From: Planctomycetota bacterium
GTDB taxonomy: Bacteria; Planctomycetota; UBA8742; UBA2392
Assembly: GCA_020425605.1 (NCBI GenBank)
Contig: JAGQRH010000005.1
Span: 75,850 to 139,849 of the forward strand
Length of the DNA: 64,000 nucleotides
Direction of reading: 5' to 3'
Shown: positions 5,112 through 33,796 of the stretch, piece after piece
How positions within the stretch are numbered: the first letter of the stretch is position 1
Layout: each line of letters opens with the position of its first letter
The notes under the pieces: model-generated
Told to the model about the DNA's origin: nothing
What the model saw: the letters and a program-made list of their open reading frames with translations, nothing else
Database searches by the model: none
Made by a program: the position numbers and the translations under genes

Positions 5112-5474
5112 CTAAACCAGCTCACGGCCTTCCAGTGGTGTGCCGCAGTACATGCAGGTCACCGCGCGTTTGCCGTTGGTCTTGCCGCAATTGCTGCACT
5201 GCTGTGGACCCGACTGGGGCTTGTACTTGCCGTCGAGTCGGCCGTCACTGAGGTCGACTTCCGTGACGATTTCACGGAACTCATCCTCGCTGAACACGCC
5301 CTTCTTCGAGCAGATCTCGAGCAGCGAGCGAATGATCAGCGTCTGGCGCTCAATCGCGTCTTCAAGCCGCGCCATCGCGTTCTCGGCGCGGCGGGCTGAG
5401 CCCTCTGCATCGGTTGCTGCATGCGCGGCCTGTCGCGCGGCGCCGTAAGAGTTGTGAACCCATCCGTAGTACAT
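5112..5474 (-). CDS. small zinc-ribbon protein (hypothetical)
   Basis: Start moved to ATG 5474 with GGAAGGAGG 6 nt upstream. C-terminal CSNC-X10-CMYC zinc ribbon. Confidence 0.55.
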   Translation of the reverse strand: MYYGWVHNSYGAARQAAHAATDAEGSARRAENAMARLEDAIERQTLIIRSLLEICSKKGVFSEDEFREIVTEVDLSDGRLDGKYKPQSGPQQCSNCGKTNGKRAVTCMYCGTPLEGRELV

Positions 5475-5563
5475 GTCTGCCTCCTTCCACTCAGCATACC
5501 CCGGCATCGCGACATCGCGATTGCAACGACGTGCGTGATTTGGAACGGCCACTGCGTTGGCGT

Positions 5564-6601
5564 CTATGCCCGTGTCGCGCTCAAGAGCCTCGCGGAGCGT
5601 GCGCGCGGGTTGTTGTGGATCTCGTCGCCCGTGGGGCGCGTTCCGTCGATATCCACGCCCGAATAGAGGCCTGCCTTCAGCCCGCTCAGAAGCGCGTCAT
5701 GCACCCGCTTCTGCTCACCGCTGTGGAACGTGATGAAGGCTGCTCGCCCGCCCGGGTTCAGCAGATACGGCAGCGTACGCAGCAAGTGCTCGAGATTCGC
5801 GACCTCGCGGTTCACGGCCATGCGCAGCGCCTGGAACACACGTGCGGCCGGGTGCTGGTCGCGCGCCGAGCGTTTCTTGTAGCTCTTCAGCCCGTAGGCG
5901 CGCAGCACGATGTTCACCAACTCGCCGGTGCGCGTCGGGCATCCGAGCTTGATGGCCGCGGCAATCGCCTCCGCACGCGGCTCGTCGCCCAGCTCAGTCA
6001 GCATCGCGGCCAGCGCTTCTTCATCGGTGTCGGCGATCAACTGCGCGGCCGTGATGCCACGCGTAGGGTCCATCCGCATATCCAGCGGCGCGTCGCGCTT
6101 GAAGCCGAAGCCGCGCTCCGGGTCGTCCAGCTGCATGCTGGAAACCCCGAAGTCCGCCAGAAGGCAGTCGACGCCGGTCAGTCCCTCGGCCGCGAGCACG
6201 TTGCCGATTCCCGCAAAATTCGTGTGGTGGGCCGAGATCTGGATCCCGCTGGCAGCCAGACGCTCGCTCGTCCGCGCCAGCTCATTGGCGTCGAGGTCGG
6301 TCGCGATCACCCGCGCACCCGCCAGCGCCAAGGCCGCCGAATGACCGCCGTAGCCCAGCGTGCAGTCCAGCGCGACTTCGCCTGCTTTGGGTGCCAGCGC
6401 CGCCAGCACTTCGCGAAGCATCACCGGCACATGGGTGCCCGCCGGCGTACGCCCGGCCGCGCGGACCTTGGCCACCTCGTCGGGGTACTTGTCCGGCGCG
6501 AGCTCCTTGTACTTCTCTTCGAAGCGCTTCGGATGCGTGCCCTGGTAGCGTTTGCGCCTTGGTGGCTTGCCGGGTGCGTCGTTCGTGAGTTCTTCGGTCA
6601 T
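5564..6601 (-). CDS. rsmH: 16S rRNA (cytosine1402-N4)-methyltransferase RsmH/MraW
   Basis: HVPVML, LDCTLGYGGHS SAM site, DFGVSSMQLD, FHSGE motifs. Confidence 0.9.
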   Translation of the reverse strand: MTEELTNDAPGKPPRRKRYQGTHPKRFEEKYKELAPDKYPDEVAKVRAAGRTPAGTHVPVMLREVLAALAPKAGEVALDCTLGYGGHSAALALAGARVIATDLDANELARTSERLAASGIQISAHHTNFAGIGNVLAAEGLTGVDCLLADFGVSSMQLDDPERGFGFKRDAPLDMRMDPTRGITAAQLIADTDEEALAAMLTELGDEPRAEAIAAAIKLGCPTRTGELVNIVLRAYGLKSYKKRSARDQHPAARVFQALRMAVNREVANLEHLLRTLPYLLNPGGRAAFITFHSGEQKRVHDALLSGLKAGLYSGVDIDGTRPTGDEIHNNPRARSARLLSATRA

Positions 6602-6735
6602 CGCGCGAGCTTAACACAGCCTTGGCGCAAAATACGCCCGCCGATGCCGATATCTGCACATGGATACACCGCATCCACTCAAACCCGTGCAAACTGCCCT
6701 GACGCGCGTTATCTTCGCGCAAAAGGGGGACCGCC

Positions 6736-6963
6736 ATGGCAGACAAAGAAGAATTGAAGAAGGCACTCAAGGCTTTCAAGAAGCGCCTGAAGGTGTACCA
6801 GGAAGACTCCGGCAGCAGCGCGCCGGCCAGCCACCTGAGCCGCGAGAAGGCCACCATCACCGCCATCAACCCGCCGGACCAGTACCCCAAGGAAGTCTGG
6901 GAAGCACTGGTCGAGAAAGGCCGCCTGAAGAAGGTCGGCCACAACATGTACTCACTGGCTTGA
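6736..6963 (+). CDS. small hypothetical protein (75 aa, Lys-rich N-terminus)
   Basis: ATG with AAGGGGGA upstream. Followed directly by a nested hairpin. Confidence 0.5.
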   Translation: MADKEELKKALKAFKKRLKVYQEDSGSSAPASHLSREKATITAINPPDQYPKEVWEALVEKGRLKKVGHNMYSLA

Positions 6964-6970
6964 GCAAACA

Positions 6971-7040
6971 TTCACCACAGAACACGCAGAGACCACAGAG
7001 CAAAGCGGTTCTCTGTGAACTCTGTGTTCTCTGTGGTGAA
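6971..7040. repeat. nested imperfect palindrome (REP-like element / terminator)
   Basis: Outer arms TTCACCACAGAACACGCAGA (6971-6990) vs TCTGTGTTCTCTGTGGTGAA (7021-7040). Inner hairpin CACAGAG(6994-7000)/CTCTGTG(7011-7017). Confidence 0.5.
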
Positions 7041-7054
7041 GAGAGGCTGAAACC

Positions 7055-7651
7055 ATGGACCAGTTGATCGTCGGCGTGAACCTGTTTGCGATCTGCCTTG
7101 TACTGGCGCTGATGGAGGTGCACATCGAGGGCCCGCACGGCTGGGCCACGACGCTGCCCACCTGGCGCTTCGACCGCCCGTGGCTGCGCAAGCTGACCAA
7201 CGGCAAGCCGATCACCGGCTATCACGTCTACATCAACCTGGTCATCCTCGGCTTCCTGCACTATCCGCTGATCGCCTCCAAATGGACCTTCGTGGGCGAG
7301 CTGCGCATCATCAGCCAGTACCTGATGGTCGCGGTCTGGTGGGATTTCCTCTGGTTCGTCTGCAACCCGTACTTCGGCGTGCGACGCTTCAAGAGCAAGA
7401 ACGTCTGGTGGCACAAACAGTGGATCCTCGGCGTGCCGATGGACTACCCGATGGGCACGATCAGCAGCGCGGCCGTGTGGTTCTGGGCCGACTGGCTGCG
7501 CCCGGCGTCCGGCACCAGCATTATCGAGTGGGCCAAGCTGCTCGGCATCGTCGTCGGCCTGACCGCGCTCACGGCCGTGTTCATGCATCTGATCGGCCGA
7601 CACAAACCCGGCACACCAATGCCCCCGAGCGAAGAGCCCAAACCCGCCTAG
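7055..7651 (+). CDS. integral membrane protein, Trp-rich (hypothetical)
   Basis: About 5 hydrophobic segments (VNLFAICLVLALM, YINLVILGFLHYPLI, YLMVAVWWDFLWFV, AAVWFWADWL, LLGIVVGLTALTAVF). Confidence 0.6.
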   Translation: MDQLIVGVNLFAICLVLALMEVHIEGPHGWATTLPTWRFDRPWLRKLTNGKPITGYHVYINLVILGFLHYPLIASKWTFVGELRIISQYLMVAVWWDFLWFVCNPYFGVRRFKSKNVWWHKQWILGVPMDYPMGTISSAAVWFWADWLRPASGTSIIEWAKLLGIVVGLTALTAVFMHLIGRHKPGTPMPPSEEPKPA

Positions 7652-8178
7652 GCCGCGTGGGCCGGGTCTCGTCCTTTGGCTTTCTCCGGCTGCGGTTGTG
7701 GCTGTACGGGCGCGGGCGTCTTTGCCTGATTCGTTGGCATGTCGGCGCGGCGGGCGTTCGGCTGTGGCGCGGGCGGTTTGACGCTGTCGGGCTGGGCCGT
7801 GTCTTCAGCCTGCGTTTCGGGCGCGTGCTCGGCCGCGCTTTCGGGCTGCTCGTCCTCGGTTGCATTCAGGATGAACTCGTCTTCGGCCGCGGCGACCATG
7901 GCGTCGCGCTTTTCGCGCAGTGTGCGGACCAGCATCACGGCGCGCAGCCCGACACTTGGCGGGACCTGCCAGCGTGGGGGGTTGCCGTCGGGGATCGGTT
8001 TGCGCCTGCGCTCAGCGAGTTCGGCCTCGTAAAGCTGCGCGGTCGAGCCGACCACACGGATTTCATCCAGCAGCTCGCGCAGGCGCGGATTGATCATCTC
8101 AAGCGCCCGCTCACGCGCCACGGAATCGGCCTCAGTAGCAGGTTTGGCAGGCCAGCGGCGATAACGTTTGTTTGACAT
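7648..8178 (-). CDS. hypothetical protein with acidic/Pro-rich C-terminal half
   Basis: Only long ORF here with non-shadow composition. Converges on the 7055 gene with a 4-nt overlap. Confidence 0.45.
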   Translation of the reverse strand: MSNKRYRRWPAKPATEADSVARERALEMINPRLRELLDEIRVVGSTAQLYEAELAERRRKPIPDGNPPRWQVPPSVGLRAVMLVRTLREKRDAMVAAAEDEFILNATEDEQPESAAEHAPETQAEDTAQPDSVKPPAPQPNARRADMPTNQAKTPAPVQPQPQPEKAKGRDPAHAA

Positions 8179-8196
8179 CAGTAGGCTCCAGGGTTT

Positions 8197-8985
8197 TCAC
8201 ACCCAAAGCCTACACCACCATTGCGACATCCAGGGCCGCGTTGGACGTACCCAACCACCCGCAAAGCCGCCCTGGTGGCGGAAAGAAAAAACTTCGACAG
8301 CTTCTTGGGCGACCACCGTAGGGGCGGCCTCATGCCCGCCCGACGAAGCCTCAACGAAGTCGGGTGCCGGGCCTGCGTGCATCTCTGCAGCAAAGGCAAC
8401 ATCTCCCCGGGGCTTTGCTGCCAGGGTTATGCTGGCCCCGCAGGGGCGCTCTACGGTAGCCGGGGGCGTGAGCCCCCGGAGCCGGTCATGGCAAGATGGC
8501 GCGCCCAAAGGGCCGCCTAGAGCGTACCCCCCAACCGCAGACACCGAACCGTCCGCGTTCCGTTTCATTCCATGCATCGTGAGAATCTCGTCCAGTTCCT
8601 CGTCGAACGTCTTCTCCGCGTGATGCTGCTCCTGATTGCGGATGTAATCGCGAGTCCGGTCCAGCAGCGACGCGCTGACGGAAAACACGCCATACCCGTC
8701 CTGCCATCCGAATTCCTGCGTCGGCCATTTCTCATGAATCCAGCGTGAAGTATTGGTCTTGATGTCGCGCATCAGGTCGGCGATCGATTGGGTCATCGAC
8801 AGCCCGATCAGCAGGTGCACGTGGTCGGCTATGCCGCCGCCCTCGATCAGCTTGCACTGGCGTTTGTCGCAGACGCCGTGGATGTACTTGAAGAGCTCAA
8901 GCTTGATGTGGGGCGTAATCAGCGGTTTGCGGTCTTTGCAGGCGAAGACCGCGTGGATGCGGACGCTGTGGTAGGTGGAGCCCAT
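8197..8985 (-). mobile_element. IS200/IS605-type Y1 (HUH) transposase, REP-associated (RAYT)-like
   Basis: HUH motif ADHVHLLIG and catalytic Tyr motif RDYIRNQEQHH. Only the first ~150 codons look like the fold. The ORF then runs ~110 more codons through GC-rich hairpins. Confidence 0.8.
8320..8480. repeat. cluster of GC-rich hairpins (REP-like) inside the 3' third of the RAYT ORF
   Basis: GGGCGG/CCGCCC 8322-8341. GCAGCAAAG/CTTTGCTGC 8388-8421. GCCCC-gca-GGGGC 8435-8447. CCGGGGGC-GTGA-GCCCCCGG 8460-8479. Confidence 0.4.
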
Positions 8986-9098
8986 CGCGGGATTGTAGCC
9001 TGCAGGCGGCCCTCCGGGCGCGCGATTTCGCGGCTAACCGGTCCGGGGGCTCAGATGCTCGAACCACCAAAATCCCGGCGTTGACGCACCGGGCTATT

Positions 9099-9281
9099 TC
9101 ATGTTGCCGCCTCCAGCGGCTGCTGGTTTATGCGGTGGGACTGCACGGCCCGTCCCAGCAGCATGCCCGCAGACGCCGGGCTCTTGATGCCGAGGATGTA
9201 GCGTGCGTAGAACTTGATCGGGCAGGTCATGTAGGCAGTGAGCTTGCTCGGGCTCAGCTGCGTGAGTATTCGTGTTTCCAT
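9099..9281 (-). pseudogene. N-terminal fragment of a PD-(D/E)XK (RecB/Cas4-like) nuclease
   Basis: 60-aa ORF. LSPSKLTAYMTCPIKFYARYILGIK resembles the conserved N-terminal Cys-containing helix of PD-(D/E)XK nuclease family proteins, but no nuclease core follows. Confidence 0.35.
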
Positions 9282-9368
9282 AGCGTTCTCCCTATTTCGT
9301 TCAATGGCAGTGTTGGTTTGCCTAACGAGCTAAACTGTCCCGGCAAAGAGGACTCAGAGAACTCTCCG

Positions 9369-10067
9369 ATGGATGAGCGTTACGTTGAGAGACGCAGGGA
9401 TCTTGATCGCGTGTTCGAACGGGCTAAGCCCATCGAACAGGAGCCCCAATACGTTGACTCTCCCTCGGGCCGGTATCGCCTTGCGGTGACTACCTATTCG
9501 ACGGGACCCAAGTCTTGGAACGTCTGTCGAGGGATCGTCACGGAGGTCGCCAGCGGTGATGTCATCGCTGATGTGAAGCGAAACATCGGTGGCTTCTCGA
9601 ACACGTGGGTGGAACACCCGAACGGCAATGAGTACCTATTGTGTGGCGAGGACTACCAAGGATACAGCACCATCAACTTAACGAAGCGGCAGGTCCACGT
9701 GTACTTTCCCGAGGCGGGATACACTGGCGGCGGATTTTGTTGGTCACAGCCAATGCCCTCCCCGGACAAACTGATGCTCGCCGTTGAGGGCTGCTTCTGG
9801 GCTGCCCCGTACGACCTCGTGTTCTATGACTTTAGGGAACCGGACTCTCTCCCGTACCGAGAACTGAAGCGAGTCGAGGACTCCATGGAGGTAAAGGGTT
9901 GGGCGGACAACGACACATTCGTGATGACTCAAGAGTTCGAAGTTCGTAAGGCGGATGGCGTTCGTTACGACACACTCGACAGGGCTGAGCAGGAACGATT
10001 GAACACAGATTCGTCTTTGGTCGACTACATCTACCCGGAGATTCAGGTTCCACGGCCACCTGCCTAA
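9369..10067 (+). CDS. orphan hypothetical protein (233 aa) in a lower-GC islet
   Basis: ORF 9081..10067 trimmed to ATG 9369 (MDERYVERRRD). Codon usage is visibly less GC-biased than in neighbours. No domain recognised. Confidence 0.5.
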   Translation: MDERYVERRRDLDRVFERAKPIEQEPQYVDSPSGRYRLAVTTYSTGPKSWNVCRGIVTEVASGDVIADVKRNIGGFSNTWVEHPNGNEYLLCGEDYQGYSTINLTKRQVHVYFPEAGYTGGGFCWSQPMPSPDKLMLAVEGCFWAAPYDLVFYDFREPDSLPYRELKRVEDSMEVKGWADNDTFVMTQEFEVRKADGVRYDTLDRAEQERLNTDSSLVDYIYPEIQVPRPPA

Positions 10068-10132
10068 GACTCGTCATTGGCGTCGGAACCGGGACGAACG
10101 GGACAGTCCCGCCCGTCCCGATTGCTGATAGG

Positions 10133-10327
10133 TCAGGCCGCCAATGCCTGCTGGACGGTCAGCCTGCCCGCCTTGATCTCGTTGAGGTGGCCGATGACGG
10201 TGCTGGCCTGTGCACGGTCGAGGTGCTCCAGCCTGCGGCCGAAGAGGCGGTTGCAGAGGCTCTCCGCGAACGTGAAGTCCACGCCCATCGGCTTGAGTTC
10301 GCCGACCAGGCCCTTGATGAAATTCAT
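10133..10327 (-). CDS. small hypothetical protein (64 aa)
   Basis: ORF only. Faint resemblance to phage GemA-like C-terminal helices (RLFGRRLEHLDRAQASTVIGHLNEIK). Not firm. Confidence 0.3.
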   Translation of the reverse strand: MNFIKGLVGELKPMGVDFTFAESLCNRLFGRRLEHLDRAQASTVIGHLNEIKAGRLTVQQALAA

Positions 10328-10403
10328 TTGCTTCTCGCTGACAGCGGCAGATTTCGCTGTGGGCCGAGCCAGACTTGGCCGGGAAGTGCCGGTTACGACG
10401 AAA

Positions 10404-11678
10404 CTACGCGTCCTTCAAAGCTGCCGCCTGGCCGTAGTACCTTGGCTCGATTAGGGCCTTTACGTGGACCTCTGAATCCGCGTACTCGATGTCGAGGATT
10501 TTGCCGTGCTGCTGCAGGTAGGCTAGCAGCTTGCCGTTGCCGGCTGAGAAGGTCCAATCCAGGGCGGTTTCGCGCTCTTCGACCACTTCCTGCACCTTCG
10601 TTGCGAGCGCCTTCAGCCCCTCGCCGGTTTTGGCGCTTACGTCTACGTACTCCGGGTGCAGCATGTGCAGGTGGGTCAGCTGCGGCTGGTCCATCACGTT
10701 GTCGATCTTGTTGAACACCATCAGCGTGCGACGCCCGTCCGCGCCGATTTCGTGCAGCACGTTGTTCACGGCCTCGATCATCTCAACGGCCGCGGGGTGG
10801 CTGGCGTCCACGACATGCAGCAGCAGGTCGGCGTGCAGCACTTCTTCCAGCGTGGCGTGAAAGCTGGCGACCAGCCTGTGGGGCAAATTGCGGATGAAAC
10901 CGACCGTGTCGCTCAGCAGCACCTTGTGGTCCGGCAGCTTCCAGACGCAGGTGCGGGTGTCCAGCGTGGCGAACAGCTTGTCCTCGACGAATACGCCCTC
11001 TTCGGTCAGCGCGTTCATCAGAGTGCTTTTGCCGGCGTTGGTGTAGCCGACGATCGACACCTGAAACAGCTCGAAGCGGCGCTCGACCTCGGTGGCGCGG
11101 CGCTTGTTGATTTCGTCCAGCTCGGACTTCAGCTTGCTGATGCGGTTGCGCAGCAGGCGGCGGTCGACTTCGATCTGTCGCTCACCGGCGCCACCGACGG
11201 CGCCCAGCCCGCCTCGCTGGCGCTCAAGGTGGGTCCAGAGGTTCTTCAGGCGTGGCAGCTCGTACTCGGCCTGCGCCAGTTGCACCTGCACCTTGGCCTG
11301 CCGGGTGCGGACGTGCTGCCCGAAGATGGCGAGAATCAGCTCGGTGCGGTCGAGGACGCTGGCCTTGACCTCGTCCTCGAGCGCGGACTGCTGGTTGGGG
11401 CGCAGCTCGTTGTCGAACACGACGATCTTGGCGCCGGTTTCTTCGACAAGCGCCGCGATCTCGGCCGTCTTGCCCTTGCCCACGTAGGTGCGCGGGGTGA
11501 TCTGCTGCATCTTCTGGTAGGCCTTGCCGACGACCTGCATGCCGGCCGTCTCAGCCAGCGCCTCAAGCTCATCGAGCGGGTCGTCGCCGAACGGCTCGTC
11601 TTCACGCACGGTGGCGCTGACAAGGACCGCAGGGAGTTCGTTGTAGGTGATCTGGTCGAGGATTGTGCGGTCGGTCAT
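10404..11678 (-). CDS. hflX: GTPase HflX
   Basis: Start moved to ATG 11678 (MTDRTILD). HflX N-domain (DRTELILAIFGQHVRTRQAKVQVQLAQAEYELPRL). G1 GYTNAGKST, G3 DTVGF, G4 NKID. Confidence 0.9.
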   Translation of the reverse strand: MTDRTILDQITYNELPAVLVSATVREDEPFGDDPLDELEALAETAGMQVVGKAYQKMQQITPRTYVGKGKTAEIAALVEETGAKIVVFDNELRPNQQSALEDEVKASVLDRTELILAIFGQHVRTRQAKVQVQLAQAEYELPRLKNLWTHLERQRGGLGAVGGAGERQIEVDRRLLRNRISKLKSELDEINKRRATEVERRFELFQVSIVGYTNAGKSTLMNALTEEGVFVEDKLFATLDTRTCVWKLPDHKVLLSDTVGFIRNLPHRLVASFHATLEEVLHADLLLHVVDASHPAAVEMIEAVNNVLHEIGADGRRTLMVFNKIDNVMDQPQLTHLHMLHPEYVDVSAKTGEGLKALATKVQEVVEERETALDWTFSAGNGKLLAYLQQHGKILDIEYADSEVHVKALIEPRYYGQAAALKDA

Positions 11679-11847
11679 GGAATCGGGGTCTCGCGTACGG
11701 CCTGTTAGCAGCATAACGCGGGGGTGTTGCAGGGGTAAGGGCAGTTCACGGTCGACAGTTGACAGTCGACGGTCGGCCCGTCTTTTTCCCCAACGATTCC
11801 CGTCGAAGGTGCGTATAAGTCGGTAGTTACGTACAGAGGATGCCCAA

Positions 11848-13782
11848 TTGGCCATAGCATTCTACATCGAGTACCCGCGCATCACGGCCGTGGAGATTAC
11901 CGGCTCGGCGCGGAAGCCGAAACTAAAGCGCGTGGAAGTGGGCGATCTGCCTGAGCCGCGCAACGAAGACGGCACGCTGATGGTGGACCGTCAAGGCTAC
12001 CTCAATGAGCAGGTCTCGGCCTTCGTGAAGGACCGCAAGCTGTCCGGCGGCAAGGCCATCCTGCTTGCAGGGCCGGAAGCCATGCGCTACCGCGAGGTCA
12101 AGCTGGCCTTCAGCGACAAGCGCAACATCGACAAAGTGCTGCAGTACCAGGTCGAAGGCCTGATCCCGAACATTCCGATTGAGCAACTGACCGTCGGCTA
12201 CAACATTCTGCAGAACGAGCCGGATGGCGCGCGCCTGCTGGTTCACGCGGCCGACAAGGATTACATCCGACAGCGCATCATCGCGCTGGAAGAAGCAGGC
12301 TGCACGGTTGATGCCGTGGACAGCAACCTGTCCGGCACTATGAACATCGGGCTGCTGCATGAGGCGTTTGCCAAGGGCTCAGCGCCTGCGCTCTGGCTCG
12401 ACTTTGCAGGTACCAGCGCGACGGTTGCGGTGGTTCACGACGGCGAAGTTCAGACGGCGCGCGTGTTTCTGGCCCCGTATCTGGCAGGCGCCAGCGGCGC
12501 GACAGCCACGGCCGAAGAAGCCAAGGCGGCCGGCAAGAAGGCCGCTGCCGAAGCGGAGCGACGTGCGCGCGAGTTTGAAGCGGGCGACCTGGACCAACTC
12601 GATCACATGGACATGGACGAAGAGTACGTGCTGGATACCTCAGCCACGGACTCGGCGACCTTGCCGAAGTCGGAGAGTGTGAACATCGGCGAGGCCGAGG
12701 TCGCGGACCGCATCCGGCACATGAGCCGTGACGAGCTGCAGAAGTTCATCACGCGCGTGGCGGTTGAGGCCAAGCGCACGATGCTGATTTCGCGCTTCGA
12801 CGCGGACCCTGAGCGTGTGGTTGTCTCGGGCCTCGGTGTCGCGGGCGACGAGCTGGCCGGGCTGCTGGGCGACGAGCTGGGGATTGACGATGCGCGCGCC
12901 ATCGAGCTGGTGGATGCAGTCAACCCGCCCGGCAACTCGATCGACACGCCGGACGTGGGCGAGCTTTCCTACCTGTGCGGCACAGCGCTGAAGGGCGTCG
13001 GGCGCGACTATACGGGGATTGATTTCCGGTACGGTGACCTGGCGGCCGGCACGCTGATGGACTACGCGAAGACGCCGCTGGCCTTCACTGCGACGCTGGT
13101 ACTGCTGTTCGCGGGTATCATGTTCCTGATCAGCTACACCCACGCGCGGCAGTATGAGCGCGACATCGCCGCACTGCGCGACCAGGACCTCGGGCCAAAG
13201 TACTTCTTCACGGCTGCGTTCTTCCACACCAAAAAGGCTGACGAGAAGTCTGCACCTTCGGCAGCGCTCAAGAAGCTGCGCGATTACCCGGACATGTCGG
13301 ATGACCCAGGCAGCGAGATCCGGCTTGCGCATAAGCGTATGAAAGACACGCAGGCGATACTTCAGGGCCTTACCACAGACCTTTATGCACGACCGCACCC
13401 GGCAGATCTGATTTTGGTCGAGATTCTGAAGACCATCCAGAATGCCAAGCCGAGCTACGACTTTGCGCTGATGCGTTGCGACATTCTCGAGTCCGGTGTG
13501 ACGATCCAGTACATGGCATCAATCACTGAAACACCGGCCGAGCGACTACGGGCAGGTGCGCCCGAGCAAAAAGAAGCGGACCGCATGTTTTATGCCTTCC
13601 GTGACCTTGCTGACGCGCACCCTGAGTGGTTTGAGGGCGCGCCAACGCAGGATGAGGGCAGCAAGACTCAAGTCGGGCCGGAAGGCCGTGAGGCGAACCA
13701 GATGACACTGAAGTTGAAGCTCAAAAAGATCGAGCCGCCAAAGAAGAAGCCCGCGACCGCGCCCAAGACAGGAGCCAAGTAA
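11848..13782 (+). CDS. PilM/GspL-like actin-fold assembly-platform protein with TM segment and large C-terminal domain
   Basis: TTG start. N-terminal ~210 aa follow the PilM/GspL layout (ITAVEITGS..., LLAGPEAMRYREVKLAF, LLVHAADKDYIRQRIIALEEAGCTVDAVD, LWLDFAGTSATVAVV). Acidic linker. One TM (LAFTATLVLLFAGIMFLISY). Confidence 0.5.
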   Translation: MAIAFYIEYPRITAVEITGSARKPKLKRVEVGDLPEPRNEDGTLMVDRQGYLNEQVSAFVKDRKLSGGKAILLAGPEAMRYREVKLAFSDKRNIDKVLQYQVEGLIPNIPIEQLTVGYNILQNEPDGARLLVHAADKDYIRQRIIALEEAGCTVDAVDSNLSGTMNIGLLHEAFAKGSAPALWLDFAGTSATVAVVHDGEVQTARVFLAPYLAGASGATATAEEAKAAGKKAAAEAERRAREFEAGDLDQLDHMDMDEEYVLDTSATDSATLPKSESVNIGEAEVADRIRHMSRDELQKFITRVAVEAKRTMLISRFDADPERVVVSGLGVAGDELAGLLGDELGIDDARAIELVDAVNPPGNSIDTPDVGELSYLCGTALKGVGRDYTGIDFRYGDLAAGTLMDYAKTPLAFTATLVLLFAGIMFLISYTHARQYERDIAALRDQDLGPKYFFTAAFFHTKKADEKSAPSAALKKLRDYPDMSDDPGSEIRLAHKRMKDTQAILQGLTTDLYARPHPADLILVEILKTIQNAKPSYDFALMRCDILESGVTIQYMASITETPAERLRAGAPEQKEADRMFYAFRDLADAHPEWFEGAPTQDEGSKTQVGPEGREANQMTLKLKLKKIEPPKKKPATAPKTGAK

Positions 13783-29123: not shown

Positions 29124-29591
29124 ATGACGACCAAGATCCTGGCACCACACTACCTGCGTCTCGAGTGCGAAATCCGCGCTGATATGGAGACGGTGTGGCG
29201 CGCCCTTACGGATCTGCATGAGCTTCGCGCATGGTGGGCCGTTCCCGTGATCAGCCACAAACAGGATGTTGGCGGCGGCTTCGAGCTGCGCTACGTCGGA
29301 CGTGATCGCGTGGACAGGTTCGTCTACACCACATGGGACAAGAACTGGCGAATCGGCGGCCGCTGGAGCTACAGCTGGCTGGATGGCGAAGTTGCCGAAA
29401 TGCTGATCCTGACCGAGATTGAAGGCGGCGTGCGCGTCACGATCGAACACACGAATTTCGAAAGTTTCGGCGCCGACCAGCAGCGCATCTTCGGCTACCA
29501 CAAGAGCGAGACACGCGCACGCCTTGAGCGCCTGAAGGCTTGGGCGGAAGTCCGACTTCCGGCTACGCAGGCCCAGATTCCAGTCGTCTGA
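29124..29591 (+). CDS. SRPBCC/AHSA1-like family protein
   Basis: LECEIRADMETVWRALTDLHELRAWW N-terminus typical of SRPBCC ligand-binding folds. Confidence 0.7.
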   Translation: MTTKILAPHYLRLECEIRADMETVWRALTDLHELRAWWAVPVISHKQDVGGGFELRYVGRDRVDRFVYTTWDKNWRIGGRWSYSWLDGEVAEMLILTEIEGGVRVTIEHTNFESFGADQQRIFGYHKSETRARLERLKAWAEVRLPATQAQIPVV

Positions 29592-30197
29592 TTACTTCGC
29601 TTCGTCCTTCTCGACGTCTTCGCCCAGTTCACGGGCGATCTCGCGGTCGAGCTCCTCGCGCGTCAGCTTCTTTCGCTCTTCGGTGTTCACGCCGATCATC
29701 TGGTCGATCTCGTCGTCCGTGACCAGTTGCTCGCCGGCGACGCTGTCTGTCTCAAACAGTGAGTCCTTGCTCATGTCCAGGAAGAGGTCCATGCGCTGGC
29801 TCATGGTGTCGGCCTGCATCATGGCGTGCTCGAAGTTCTTCTGCGTCGCCTCAAGATCGGTAGTCTTGTAGACCTCGTTGATGCTCTTGCTGACCACGCC
29901 CATGGATTCAGCGAAGACGCTGAAACTCTCGGCCTGGTTCTTCATCTGGAAGGCCGCCTCGATCGTCAGCAACTGGCGCTCAAGCATGCGGCGCTGGAAC
30001 GTGGTGGCCTTGAGCGACTTGCGCACGAACGCGAGCTGGTCAGCCGCGCCGATGCGTGCGGCCTCGCGGGCCTTGCCCAGCCATTCTTCTTCGCTCTTGC
30101 TGAGCTCTTTCATCTGGCGGCGGATGCGCTGGATGCCCTTCTTGATTTCCATATCGCGCGCGATGCGTCGCTCTTCTTTGGATTTGAATATGCCCAT
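29592..30197 (-). CDS. ESCRT-III/PspA-superfamily protein C (201 aa)
   Basis: MGIFKSK N-terminus. Basic helical hairpin region (EEWLGKAREAARIGAADQLAFVRKSLKATTFQRRMLERQL). Acidic C-terminal half ending in an amphipathic helix (REELDREIARELGED). Last gene of the operon. Confidence 0.6.
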   Translation of the reverse strand: MGIFKSKEERRIARDMEIKKGIQRIRRQMKELSKSEEEWLGKAREAARIGAADQLAFVRKSLKATTFQRRMLERQLLTIEAAFQMKNQAESFSVFAESMGVVSKSINEVYKTTDLEATQKNFEHAMMQADTMSQRMDLFLDMSKDSLFETDSVAGEQLVTDDEIDQMIGVNTEERKKLTREELDREIARELGEDVEKDEAK

Positions 30198-30259: not shown

Positions 30260-31078
30260 TCATTCCACGACGTGGTAGTTGGCTTCGCCTTGTGCGAGGC
30301 GCTTCTTCGTGTGGCTGGTCATACGTTCGGACTTGCGGATCGCTGCCTCGATGAAGTCGCGGTGATCGCGTAGTCGGCCGCCCAGGTAGGCACGGGCGAA
30401 GCGGGCCCTGTCAGTCGCCGTCACCAGTGACGCGGGAGCCGAATGCAGCAGCGCGGCAACGTCTTTCACGCGCCAGCGCCGGGTTACGCGCTTGCGGATG
30501 TCAGCCCGGTTCAGGTCCGTCACGTACAGCTCGTCGTCGTGGCCCACGCGAATATGCACGAGGTAGAAATCGCGATGATTCACCCCGCCGTCATGCATGC
30601 GGCGCAGGATCCGACCCAGCTCAACGGTGAGCTGCCAGCGGCGCGCGGGCTGCGGGCACTCAGTGAATTCTTCCAGCAACAGCTTCTGCAGGCTTCTCGG
30701 TGCGCTTAGCCCGACGGTCAGCAGCGCCGCGCGTTTGACGACACCGCTCTCGACTTCCTCAATGCACGCGGCGGGGCGCATGGTCGGCACGCGCAGTTCG
30801 TGCAGTCGTTGAAGCACGTGCCATTCGCGTGAGGCGGGGGAATCGAAACCCCGGGCGAACAGGCCCGCAAAACGGGGCTCAGGCTCGATCTCGCGGTATA
30901 GCTTCAGGTAGAGGGTAGTCCCGGCGGCGGTGACCAACCGGTAGGTCTGTCGCGACTCGAGCCGGGCCTTGATGGTTTCAAGGTCGCCCCTGGCGGCCAG
31001 CGCATTGACATCCAGCAGGCCCTCGGACTCCAGCTCGGAACGCAGCGCGGGGTCAACCAGCAGGCGGGTCTCTCGCAT
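30260..31078 (-). CDS. protein-kinase-like enzyme, Kdo/WaaP (lipopolysaccharide kinase) family
   Basis: TLYLKLYRE (N-lobe Lys), catalytic loop GVNHRDFYLVHIRV, metal-binding LYVTDLNRA. Confidence 0.7.
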   Translation of the reverse strand: MRETRLLVDPALRSELESEGLLDVNALAARGDLETIKARLESRQTYRLVTAAGTTLYLKLYREIEPEPRFAGLFARGFDSPASREWHVLQRLHELRVPTMRPAACIEEVESGVVKRAALLTVGLSAPRSLQKLLLEEFTECPQPARRWQLTVELGRILRRMHDGGVNHRDFYLVHIRVGHDDELYVTDLNRADIRKRVTRRWRVKDVAALLHSAPASLVTATDRARFARAYLGGRLRDHRDFIEAAIRKSERMTSHTKKRLAQGEANYHVVE

Positions 31079-31084
31079 CAGCGG

Positions 31085-32323
31085 CTAGTCGTCCTCAACG
31101 CTCCAGTCGAGGTAGCGTTGCATCTCCTGCGGGCTGGTGCCCGGCCGGATGTAGGTCTTTGCGCGTTCAAAGTCCGCGAGTGTCAGCGGGCGTACTTTCA
31201 CCTGGTAGTTGCGCGTAGCGGCGAGTCCGGTGTCGATCAGGTCGGGCAGGTCCTCGTTCAACTGGCCGATCATCTGCGACGTCGCCTGCTTGCAGAGGCG
31301 CTCGATTTCTCGGCCGGAATAGCCGACCGTGTCGTCGATCAGTTCCTTGAGGTCAAACTCAAGCTGATAGCCCTTCTTCAGAAGCTGGATGCTGAGGATG
31401 GCTTCACGTGTCTCTTCATCGGGCAGCGGAATCAGGATCTGCTTCTCGAAGCGGGACATCACGGCTGCGTCAATTTCCCACGGCCGGTTGGTTGCGGCGA
31501 TGGTGAGCACGAAGATGTCGCTGCGGCCTTTCTCGGCCAGCCCGTCAAGCTCGGCCAAAATGGTCGAAAGAATGCGGCGCTCTGCCCCGGTCTGCTCGGA
31601 GTCGCGGTTGCTGGTCAGTGACTCGAATTCGTCGAGGAACACGACGCTGGGGCTGTTGTCGCGCGCGGCGCCATAGATCTCGCTGATGATCTTGCTGCTT
31701 TCGCCGAAATACTTGCTCAGCACGCCGCTGACTTTCACGTTGAAGAACAGCGCCTGGCCTTCGGTGGTGACCTTCAGGCTATTGCTGGTGGCCGCTGCAA
31801 GCAGGGTCTTGCCGGTGCCCGGCGGGCCGTAGAACAGCATGTTTCGGAAGGTCGTGATCTTCACGCCCTCGGGTGGCTTCGCGAGCGACAGGCCGAGCGT
31901 GTACTTGATGTCGCGCTTGGTTTCTTCAAGTCCACCGATATCGTCCCAGGTGATCGTGCTGGTGTGGACCAGCGCCGAGACGGCTTCGCTGATGTTGCTT
32001 TCGGGCTCGCCAGCGGTGGTTTCGTGGCTGCGATTCTCATCCACGTGGCTGCTGGGGGGAGACGGCAGCTTGGCCTTGCCGCTTTCCGGCTTCTCGATGC
32101 CGACTTCGCGCAGGCGCCGGGCGAAATCTCGGTACTCGATTGCCTTGCGCTTCCGGGCGTACTCCATGCTGCGCGACTGGGCGTGCTCGGCAAACTTGAA
32201 CATGGTCTTGCTGGCCGACTCGAAGTTCGCGGCGGCCGTCTCCGAATCGCCTGCCTTCCAGGCCATCTTGGCCTTGTGCAGGGCGTCGTCGCAGGCGCGT
32301 TTGAGTTTGGGTCCTAAGTCCAT
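31085..32323 (-). CDS. MIT-domain + single AAA+ ATPase, Vps4/CdvC-like
   Basis: N-terminal three-helix segment (LKRACDDALHKAKMAWKAGDSETAAANFESASKTMFKFAE...RKRKAIEYRDFARRLRE). Walker A GPPGTGKT, pore loop SKYFGES, Walker B VVFLDEFES, SRH ATNRPWEIDAAVMSRFEKQILIPLPDEETR. Confidence 0.8.
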   Translation of the reverse strand: MDLGPKLKRACDDALHKAKMAWKAGDSETAAANFESASKTMFKFAEHAQSRSMEYARKRKAIEYRDFARRLREVGIEKPESGKAKLPSPPSSHVDENRSHETTAGEPESNISEAVSALVHTSTITWDDIGGLEETKRDIKYTLGLSLAKPPEGVKITTFRNMLFYGPPGTGKTLLAAATSNSLKVTTEGQALFFNVKVSGVLSKYFGESSKIISEIYGAARDNSPSVVFLDEFESLTSNRDSEQTGAERRILSTILAELDGLAEKGRSDIFVLTIAATNRPWEIDAAVMSRFEKQILIPLPDEETREAILSIQLLKKGYQLEFDLKELIDDTVGYSGREIERLCKQATSQMIGQLNEDLPDLIDTGLAATRNYQVKVRPLTLADFERAKTYIRPGTSPQEMQRYLDWSVEDD

Positions 32324-32503: not shown

Positions 32504-33121
32504 CTAAATTGTTCCTTCTTCGGATTCAAGCTTGGCGCGCAACTCCGTTTCGGCCTTGAGTGCCTGGTCAAAGTCGCCGCCTTCTTCGGCTTCGTTGATG
32601 GTGTCGATCTCGGACAGGAAGCGCACCTTCTCAGGATCGCTGTCGTCCATGTCACCCTCGACCTCAAGCCCAAGGTCATCGAGCGTTGCATTCAGCTCGT
32701 CCATGTAGGCTTCCTCGTCGATCTGCTGCAGGGCCAGCTTGGCATCGAGCCCGCTGCTGCGGATACGCTGCAGGAGCTTGTTGACGCCGTCCTTGTCTTT
32801 GCGTTTCTCGAGACGCTCGAGACCGCGCACGTACTTCTTGAGCGCGATACCCTCAAGGTTGCTGACCTTGGCGGCCCGGCGCTGGAAGGCGAAGTCGTAC
32901 TTGATGTCCTTCAGCTCTTCCCAGACGTAGTCGACTTCGATGCTGTTGCCCTCGCGGCGCGCGCGCTTGATCTGTTCAATCAGCGACGCCTGGCGCGTGC
33001 TGAGCTTGCGCATCTCCATGAAATACTTGCGGCGCTCGCGCTCGACCTCGCGCAGCTTGACCTTCAGCTTCCGCAGGTCGACCTTGCTGCCGAACAGGCT
33101 GGCAAAGAATTCGGATACCAT
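32504..33121 (-). CDS. ESCRT-III/Snf7-like protein B (205 aa)
   Basis: Snf7/CHMP4-like N-terminus MVSEFFASLFGSK. Basic hairpin region. Acidic C-terminal half. Terminal ETELRAKLESEE resembles a MIM1 helix. Confidence 0.6.
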   Translation of the reverse strand: MVSEFFASLFGSKVDLRKLKVKLREVERERRKYFMEMRKLSTRQASLIEQIKRARREGNSIEVDYVWEELKDIKYDFAFQRRAAKVSNLEGIALKKYVRGLERLEKRKDKDGVNKLLQRIRSSGLDAKLALQQIDEEAYMDELNATLDDLGLEVEGDMDDSDPEKVRFLSEIDTINEAEEGGDFDQALKAETELRAKLESEEGTI

Positions 33122-33124
33122 CGG

Positions 33125-33796
33125 CTACTCCACCTGCGCTTCCGGCTCATTCCGGGAATTGTCTTCTTCGTCATCGCGCGCGCTTTCGCGGCGCATGATT
33201 TCTTCCTCGATCTCGCGCAGCTCGGCATCGGTCGTGCGCGCGGGCGGGGGCGCTTCGCCCATGATTTCCTTTTCCAGCTTGCGCAGCTCGTCCTTGTCCT
33301 TGTTCGTGAGCACGTCGTCGCGGCTCTGGATCACGCCTTCGCCGGTATTGACCGAATCGCGGAACTTCTCCATGCCTTCTTCGAAATCGAGCATCACGCG
33401 TTCCACCACGCTCTGTTCGATCCCGCGCAGGTCCATTGCTTCCATGGCCTGGATCTTGCCGACCAGGTTCATGTGCAGCTCGATGTTCTTGTTCAGGATG
33501 TCGGCCTTCAGCTTCAGGTTTCCCATCTGCGTGCGCGTGCGTTTGATCTGAAGCAGCACGAACTCTTTCTCGCGGTCGCCGACGCGGCCGGACTTGATGT
33601 TCTCCATGCTCGCGCGCTCAGACAGCTCCAGGCGCGCGAGTTCCTGGCGCGTCTTGCGCAGCTCGACTTCGTTCTGGGTGATCAGCTCGTCGAGGTGCTC
33701 TAGCATCTCCCGCGTGGAATGGGCGTCCTTGATCACCTGCTCGGCGTCGCCGGAAGTGCCTCGCAGCATCTGCTTGATTTGGTCCAGTAGGCTCAT
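33125..33796 (-). CDS. ESCRT-III/PspA-superfamily protein A (223 aa)
   Basis: ATG directly follows the upstream TGA (TGAATG). MSLLDQIKQML N-terminus, long heptad helices, acidic tail with DAELREIEEEIMRRE. Confidence 0.55.
   Translation of the reverse strand: MSLLDQIKQMLRGTSGDAEQVIKDAHSTREMLEHLDELITQNEVELRKTRQELARLELSERASMENIKSGRVGDREKEFVLLQIKRTRTQMGNLKLKADILNKNIELHMNLVGKIQAMEAMDLRGIEQSVVERVMLDFEEGMEKFRDSVNTGEGVIQSRDDVLTNKDKDELRKLEKEIMGEAPPPARTTDAELREIEEEIMRRESARDDEEDNSRNEPEAQVE

Follow-up and report, generated by a model that had tools for sequence, protein, structure and literature searches.

A probable Snf7/CHMP-type ESCRT-III protein encoded beside Vps4-type AAA ATPases in Planctomycetota

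Gene C and its cluster

The stretch of DNA that was analysed (the window, 64,000 nucleotides) comes from an uncultured Planctomycetota MAG that is 86% complete. It contains a cluster of genes on one strand in the order lead, A, B, ATPase, kinase, and C, so that C is the final gene. The genes considered here are the following.

33125..33796, minus strand: gene A, helical protein without detectable sequence relation to C (hhalign against C; no Pfam match)
32504..33121, minus strand: gene B, helical protein, weakly ESCRT-III-like (hhalign against C; no Pfam match)
31085..32323, minus strand: ATPase1, predicted Vps4 architecture with MIT, AAA, and a Vps4_C-like end (Pfam AAA 3.8e-34, Vps4_C weak)
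30260..31078, minus strand: Kdo/WaaP-family kinase gene, between ATPase1 and C (Pfam Kdo 9e-27)
29592..30197, minus strand: gene C, predicted 201-aa Snf7/CHMP-type ESCRT-III protein (ORF, family profile, AF2 models)
29124..29591, plus strand: AHSA1-family gene, convergent with C

The frame of gene C is the longest ORF possible at this position. The 201-aa protein starts with MGIFKSKEERR, contains EEWLGKAREAARIGAADQLAFVRKSLKATTFQRRMLERQLLTIEAAFQMKNQAESF, and ends in REELDREIARELGEDVEKDEAK; the N terminus, core, and C terminus quoted in the original prediction are thus reproduced exactly from the ORF at 30197..29592 on the minus strand. A Shine-Dalgarno-like GAAAGG lies 7–12 nucleotides 5' of the ATG. 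Among 22 homologues, residues Met-1, Phe-4, Lys-5, and Ser-6 are invariant and Gly-2 is at least 90% conserved, and the start of the gene is fixed by this conservation of the N-terminal residues across the family. At the other end, the stop codon of C abuts the stop codon of the AHSA1-family gene at the boundary 29591/29592. Because the two genes end on adjacent bases, there is no intergenic room for a shared terminator, and a scan for a terminator-like hairpin on the minus strand found none.

Homologues of protein C number 512 among 5.8 billion proteins and 273 cluster representatives among 1.84 billion, and a family-profile search collected 586 members. All of their public records are annotated as hypothetical or are mislabelled. 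Several JGI records, including P0106 and P0110, carry the label "negative regulator of replication initiation", which seems to be a mistaken annotation, the protein being helical. The "hypothetical protein" annotation in public records is the only point in favour of a chance or non-functional reading frame; the hundreds of full-length homologues with conserved ends, together with 83% identity across the window's own family, refute that explanation, and we consider it next to impossible.

Conservation was compared among 21 loci that belong to the same family as the window. The median identity is 83% for C, 83% for A, 80% for B, and 78% for the ATPase, and the kinase is the least conserved member of the cluster with 62%. 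For the flanking genes the corresponding values are 58% (MurD-like), 67% (AHSA1), and 78% (MsbA-like). The chromosomal synteny flanking the cluster, which sits between housekeeping genes, is conserved in this family, and the GC content is uniform.

Of the 401 Planctomycetota genomes sampled, 77 (from 55 of 287 genera) carry a member of the C family, essentially in single copy. All carriers are uncultured MAGs, and no relatives of C were found on viral contigs. C is the best-conserved gene of the locus; among the three small proteins it has the widest distribution, and it alone is found outside Planctomycetota.

Structure and superfamily branch of protein C

Two AF2 models of protein C were obtained, with pLDDT values of 69 and 77. 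The helices span residues 7–49, 52–110, 114–146 or 114–149, and 161–168, and are followed by a terminal helix. This matches the helical layout of an ESCRT-III protein of about 200 residues, with a hairpin, α3/α4, a short α5, and a terminal helix. The features of the protein, all on the minus strand, are listed from the N terminus.

30177..30197: MGIFKSK, N-terminal motif preceding helix 1, candidate for membrane insertion (residue conservation)
29868..30179: residues 7–110, basic helical hairpin, predicted ESCRT-III core (AF2 model 2 pLDDT 84–93; alignment to CHMP2A and CHMP3; charge +8)
29751..29858: residues 114–149, helix 4 equivalent (AF2 helix 114–146 or 115–149; aligned to CHMP2A and CHMP3)
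29694..29717: residues 161–168, DDEIDQMI, α5-type motif EIDxMI (conservation and CHMP3 alignment)
29607..29660: residues 180–197, REELDREIARELGEDVEK, terminal acidic amphipathic helix, candidate MIT-interacting motif in a short form (AF2)

The two helices of the hairpin (residues 7–49 and 52–110) fall in the basic half of the protein. The net charge is +8 over residues 1–110 and −14 over residues 111–201, close to the family medians of +11 and −15. The N-terminal motif has the family consensus MGLFKSK; it is unstructured in both models, in which helix 1 starts at residue 7. In the α5-type motif, Asp-161, Glu-163, Ile-164, and Asp-165 are invariant or nearly so, and the pattern is matched by 63 of 111 family members. 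The family sequence "sdeeidkli" pairs with "EMEIDRIL" of CHMP3 in the profile alignment.

The terminal helix covers residues 180–190 in one model and 172–200 in the other, with low confidence. The family consensus of the tail is LDxEIxKGLKEIEKELGK. Its hydrophobic residues are spaced as in MIM1 (i, i+4, i+7) in about half of the family, and a glycine stands at the position of the conserved MIM1 arginine. In the clade of the window the tail is shortened to LDREIARELGE. The helix layout, the charge polarity, MGLFKSK, EIDxMI, and the terminal amphipathic helix all fit an ESCRT-III protein. The original prediction had described C as a member of the ESCRT-III superfamily with an MG-hydrophobic start, an α1-α2 hairpin, and an acidic tail, and the profile, the AF2 models, and the charge distribution agree with this description.

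Fold searches were made with Foldseek. For model 1, ESCRT-III chains fill nearly all of the top ranks (CHMP2A/3, CdvB, CHMP1B, and Asgard ESCRT-IIIB), and Vipp1 appears only at rank 39–41. With model 2, which is the better one, the first ranks go to BAR domains, and ESCRT-III chains are still frequent. Neither model gave a significant E-value (all at least 0.13), so the fold search is consistent with an ESCRT-III reading and does not discriminate. Given these E-values and the BAR domains at the top of the list for model 2, sequence profiles were relied on instead.

A C-family profile built from 87 diverse representatives was run against all PDB sequences, which hold PspA, Vipp1, CdvB, and CHMP branches, and the ranking was used to assign the branch. 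The best matches are CHMP2A (E 2.5e-6), CHMP3 (1.5e-4), and CHMP1B (3.6e-3), followed by Snf7 (0.05) and CdvB (2.3). The alignments to the CHMPs are in register over approximately 135–155 residues and reach into α5, spanning 9–144 for CHMP2A and 14–167 for CHMP3. Chains of PspA or Vipp1 are absent from the matches at E ≤ 10, although the structures 7abk, 6zvr, and 8qbw of these families are in the library.

The Pfam models rank in the same way. Snf7 (PF03357) matches 19 of the 87 family members with a best E of 1.1e-7 and is the only family that recurs, and PspA_IM30 (PF04012) matches none of the 87 at E ≤ 0.01. The Snf7 HMM is a weak instrument; in the E. coli and B. subtilis controls it gives weak matches, never above its own cut-off. 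Protein C of the window alone matches it with E 3e-4 and 20.9 bits, under the cut-off of 27.3, and matches CHMP3 with E 0.019. By these profile comparisons C is placed in the Snf7/CHMP branch (ESCRT-III proper), closest to the CHMP2/CHMP3/CHMP1 class, and not in the PspA/Vipp1 branch. This settles, at the level of profiles, a point that had been left undecided by eye.

The alternative is that C is a PspA/Vipp1-type stress protein, which would stabilise damaged membrane without a dedicated disassembly ATPase. The first residues of E. coli PspA are similar to the MGIF start of C, the ESCRT-III fold is common to both families, and Vipp1 and PspA chains do occur, far down the Foldseek lists. PspA α0 is about 20 residues long, and CHMP-type N termini are short and hydrophobic-basic. 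What the alignments establish for MGIFKSK is its conservation; set beside this general background, it seems more like the short CHMP-type N termini than PspA α0.

The profile and Pfam results given above argue against the PspA/Vipp1 alternative, as does the alignment of the α5 motif with CHMP3. PF04012 also has no match in the window's genome (86% complete). There are no psp- or lia-type genes beside C; its neighbours are AAA ATPases, the Kdo kinase, and the helical proteins A and B, and the link to MIT-AAA ATPases is constant. The PspA/Vipp1 reading is largely refuted, and we hold it to be very improbable.

Protein C had also been taken for a third paralogue of A and B. Pairwise BLAST among the three proteins shows no significant similarity. 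Profile-profile comparison with hhalign links C to B with a probability of 34% and E 4.4e-4, in register on the hairpin, and gives 1.5% for C against A and 1.1% for A against B. The proposed relationship is therefore weakly supported for B, and by sequence it is unsupported for A.

Gene neighbourhood and partner ATPases

The neighbourhood of C was surveyed in 80 related loci from species-representative genomes and provides the strongest functional evidence for the protein. A gene for one of two ATPases, ATPase1 or ATPase2, lies beside C in 74 of the 80 loci, in several gene orders, which couples C genomically to a Vps4-type ATPase (MIT, one AAA, and Vps4_C). The commonest full layout in Planctomycetota is lead-A-B-ATPase1-C-ATPase2, and variants are A-B-C-ATPase2, ATPase1-C-ATPase2, and ATPase1-C. 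Genes A and B are co-conserved upstream of the ATPase gene, and divergent copies were recovered by HMMs where BLAST had missed them. ATPase2, a Cdc48-like MIT-AAA protein of approximately 370–390 residues, directly follows C in most Planctomycetota clusters (loci L040-L059 and L086-L140).

The N-terminal profile of ATPase1 covers the MIT domains of Vps4A/B at full length (E 1.1e-4). The N terminus of ATPase1 of the window is MIT-like, and Vps4B (2zam) is aligned over 7–353. For ATPase2, the best match of the N-terminal profile is a 74-residue chitin synthase 1 chain (2mpk, E 1.3e-3), an entry that we take to be an MIT domain. A weak match (E 0.35) is to 2w2u, deposited as "hypothetical P60 katanin", which is presumably the MIT domain of Sulfolobus CdvC.

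The Vps4_C model is matched above the Pfam cut-off by an ATPase1 orthologue (30.1 bits), an ATPase2 (22.3), and the Clostridial partner described below (22.9); the loci with such a match are L057, L046, and L038. Against the NCBIfam CdvC model the ATPase gives 2.3e-44, under the cut-off of that model. By whole-protein score the AAA domains are closer to Cdc48/VAT than to Vps4, which is in part an effect of summing two domains. Judged from these profile matches, both ATPases look like Vps4-architecture proteins with MIT-like N termini.

Two exceptions to the close association were noted. In one sister or neighbouring family, of the same order as the window (G029 and G265), the closest ATPase1 orthologue, with 63% identity, lies on a contig other than that of C. 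In a Tepidisphaerales MAG (G406), no ATPase gene was found in the flanks of C, and the best ATPase match in the genome is 31% identical.

The Kdo-family kinase is present in 17 of the 80 loci, all of them in the clade of the window, and a whole-genome tblastn search found no copy of ATPase2 in the window's genome. The sister group has the order lead-A-B-ATPase1-C. By these gene contents, the clade of the window has lost ATPase2, and a Kdo-family kinase has been gained, its gene lying between those of ATPase1 and C. ATPase1 is the likely partner of C in the window's genome; as the only one that remains there, it would serve A, B, and C alike.

From the separation of C from A and B, a distinct role as nucleator or capping subunit had been proposed. 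In other Planctomycetota, C lies directly after B or between two ATPase genes. The kinase insertion is limited to the clade of the window, so the separation is a lineage-specific rearrangement and not a designed feature. A core subunit also fits better than an accessory one because C is the most widespread of the three proteins and the only one outside the phylum.

Kinases recur near the module. Besides the Kdo-family kinase of the window, a Pkinase-FGE-sulfatase fusion occurs in another planctomycete (L002:508-2475), and genes for an FHA protein, a PP2C, and a Ser/Thr kinase lie by the module in a Clostridia MAG (L038; GCA_028748545.1, 27% GC; 5231-13572). The recurrent kinases and the invariant Ser-6 of C hint at phospho-regulation of the module. 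More speculatively, the clade-specific Kdo-family kinase may be its regulator.

The form of the tail was compared with the presence of ATPase2. Loci with ATPase2 have the tail motif in 46 cases and lack it in 7, and for loci without ATPase2 the numbers are 16 and 27; few lineages are behind this signal, and the full motif is kept in some clades that have ATPase1 only. The correlation of the long-form tail with ATPase2 is suggestive on these few lineages.

In the C-family tree, a second half is made up of low-GC members, and one of them comes from the Clostridia MAG GCA_028748545.1. The C homologue of this MAG is 29% identical over the full length (E 3e-17). Its gene is flanked by one for a 309-aa protein and one for a 372-aa MIT-like AAA ATPase, the latter with 31% identity to the ATPase of the window. 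Upstream is an SPFH/zinc-ribbon gene; downstream are the genes for the FHA protein, the PP2C, and the Ser/Thr kinase. In three metagenomic low-GC loci (L142:6001-7863, L143:245-2089, and L060:6001-8403), C-type domains are N-terminal in fusions, either to FtsK/SpoIIIE DNA-translocase motors or to a RuvB-like AAA with a NERD nuclease domain. Beside these fusions are genes for a trypsin-like protease or an extra C-like protein, an SPFH protein (Band_7_1), a protein of approximately 344 residues, a free C-like protein, and an MIT-like AAA ATPase.

The low-GC fusions bear on the main rival for C, a defence or DNA-handling role. Here C would be a coiled-coil protein that serves the AAA ATPase as adaptor or substrate outside membrane remodelling, for example in a conflict/defence or DNA-handling module, with its ESCRT-III ancestry serving as a docking scaffold. 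The fusion partners speak for it, as do the trypsin-like proteases that adjoin the low-GC relatives, the kinases that recur nearby, and the generic matches of the ATPases to IetA models.

In PADLOC-DB 2.0, however, A, B, and C are unmatched, and the ATPases give generic AAA matches only (IetA and TRIP13). The absence of relatives from viral contigs, the synteny conserved among housekeeping genes, the uniform GC content, and the single copy also count against this rival, as does the fact that C is more conserved than its neighbours. In addition, the whole family keeps the membrane-type motif at the N terminus and the polarity of charge. A defence-system reading was rejected on the PADLOC result for A, B, and C and the lack of viral relatives; the wider adaptor role we regard as unlikely.

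Proposed function and relation to known systems

Taken together, the profiles and the gene neighbourhood suggest that C is probably a genuine bacterial Snf7/CHMP-family protein, the core ATPase-engaging subunit of an ESCRT-III/Vps4-like module. In the proposed mechanism, the MGIFKSK motif and the basic hairpin would bind the cytoplasmic membrane, and C would assemble into filaments, either by itself or together with A and B. The tail, which is acidic and carries the α5 motif and the terminal amphipathic helix, would keep the monomer closed. In the polymer, the tail would expose an MIM-like helix, to which the MIT domain of the AAA ATPase encoded next to C could bind. Extraction of C subunits by the ATPase would then lead to turnover of the filament, and the membrane would be reshaped or cut.

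Candidate processes in the cell are division or budding of these FtsZ-less bacteria, invagination or repair of the membrane, and the formation of vesicles. No FtsZ/tubulin match was found in the window's genome (86% complete). Tubulin-family matches occur in 15 of the 401 Planctomycetota genomes, with or without C; they are mostly low-scoring and cluster in three families (f16, f60, and f80). Two genomes (G244 and G361) combine a tubulin/FtsZ-family match with a very weak C-like match. C and FtsZ occur together in three genomes that are not labelled Planctomycetota. No correlation can be drawn from this distribution, and the idea that C replaces FtsZ was set aside.

The closest known system is that of CHMP2A, CHMP3, and CHMP1B (the Vps2/Vps24/Did2 class) with VPS4. 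These CHMPs are the best profile matches of C, in register from the N terminus to α5, and they have in common with it the size, the order of helices, the basic and acidic halves, the short hydrophobic N-terminal motif, and the acidic terminal helix. The partner ATPase likewise combines MIT, AAA, and Vps4_C, as in eukaryotic VPS4. In contrast to eukaryotic ESCRT-III, the host is bacterial, and the identity is only approximately 17–20%. The terminal helix has a spacing similar to that of eukaryotic MIM1 but with glycine for arginine, and in the window it is shortened. ESCRT-I/II-like genes were not seen, and Planctomycetota have two distinct families of partner ATPase.

The archaeal Cdv system and Asgard ESCRT-III with CdvC/Vps4 are similar in that prokaryotic operons encode several ESCRT-III-type proteins and an MIT-AAA ATPase. 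CdvB and CdvB2 are among the fold matches of C, whereas in the profile search CdvB does not reach significance (E 2.3), and there is no CdvA in the C system. With PspA/Vipp1 (IM30), C shares the superfamily fold and the MG-hydrophobic start, but it is coupled to Vps4-type ATPases and not to PspF or to no ATPase at all.

Divergent Snf7 domains and Vps4-like ATPases have been reported in some bacteria, Planctomycetes included (Ravi et al. 2024, PMC11237479). In one type of case, Snf7 is replaced by a TPR-6TM protein that accompanies a Vps4-like ATPase, and in the other, a signal/TM-anchored divergent Snf7 occurs with a two-domain AAA (inactive and active). C differs from these cases in that it is soluble, belongs to the MGLFKSK type, and has single-AAA MIT ATPases as partners. 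A full-text literature search found no description of a soluble MGLFKSK-type protein with such partners. Two reviews (PMC10936438 and PMC7619361) describe the pairing of ESCRT-III and Vps4 as absent from bacteria, and the one from 2025 states that a Vps4-like ATPase appears absent in bacteria. A C module in bacteria contradicts this absence.

C would be the clearest Snf7/CHMP-type protein of the bacterial module, and through it the planctomycete operons are connected with similar ones in Clostridia. As a small, soluble protein with a defined partner, it offers a natural handle on the origin of ATPase-driven ESCRT-III turnover and on the role of such turnover in FtsZ-less bacteria with unusual membrane organisation. 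A bolder and rather doubtful idea, which we put forward tentatively, is that MGLFKSK-type ESCRT-III and MIT-AAA ATPases form an old, vertically inherited membrane-scission machine of Planctomycetota and Bacillota and are not a recent archaeal import. If this were true, scission in FtsZ-less planctomycetes could be division or budding, and in Clostridia it could be coupled to DNA clearance via the ESCRT-III-FtsK fusions. Vps4-driven remodelling of ESCRT-III would then predate the archaeal-eukaryotic lineage, or would have arisen outside it.
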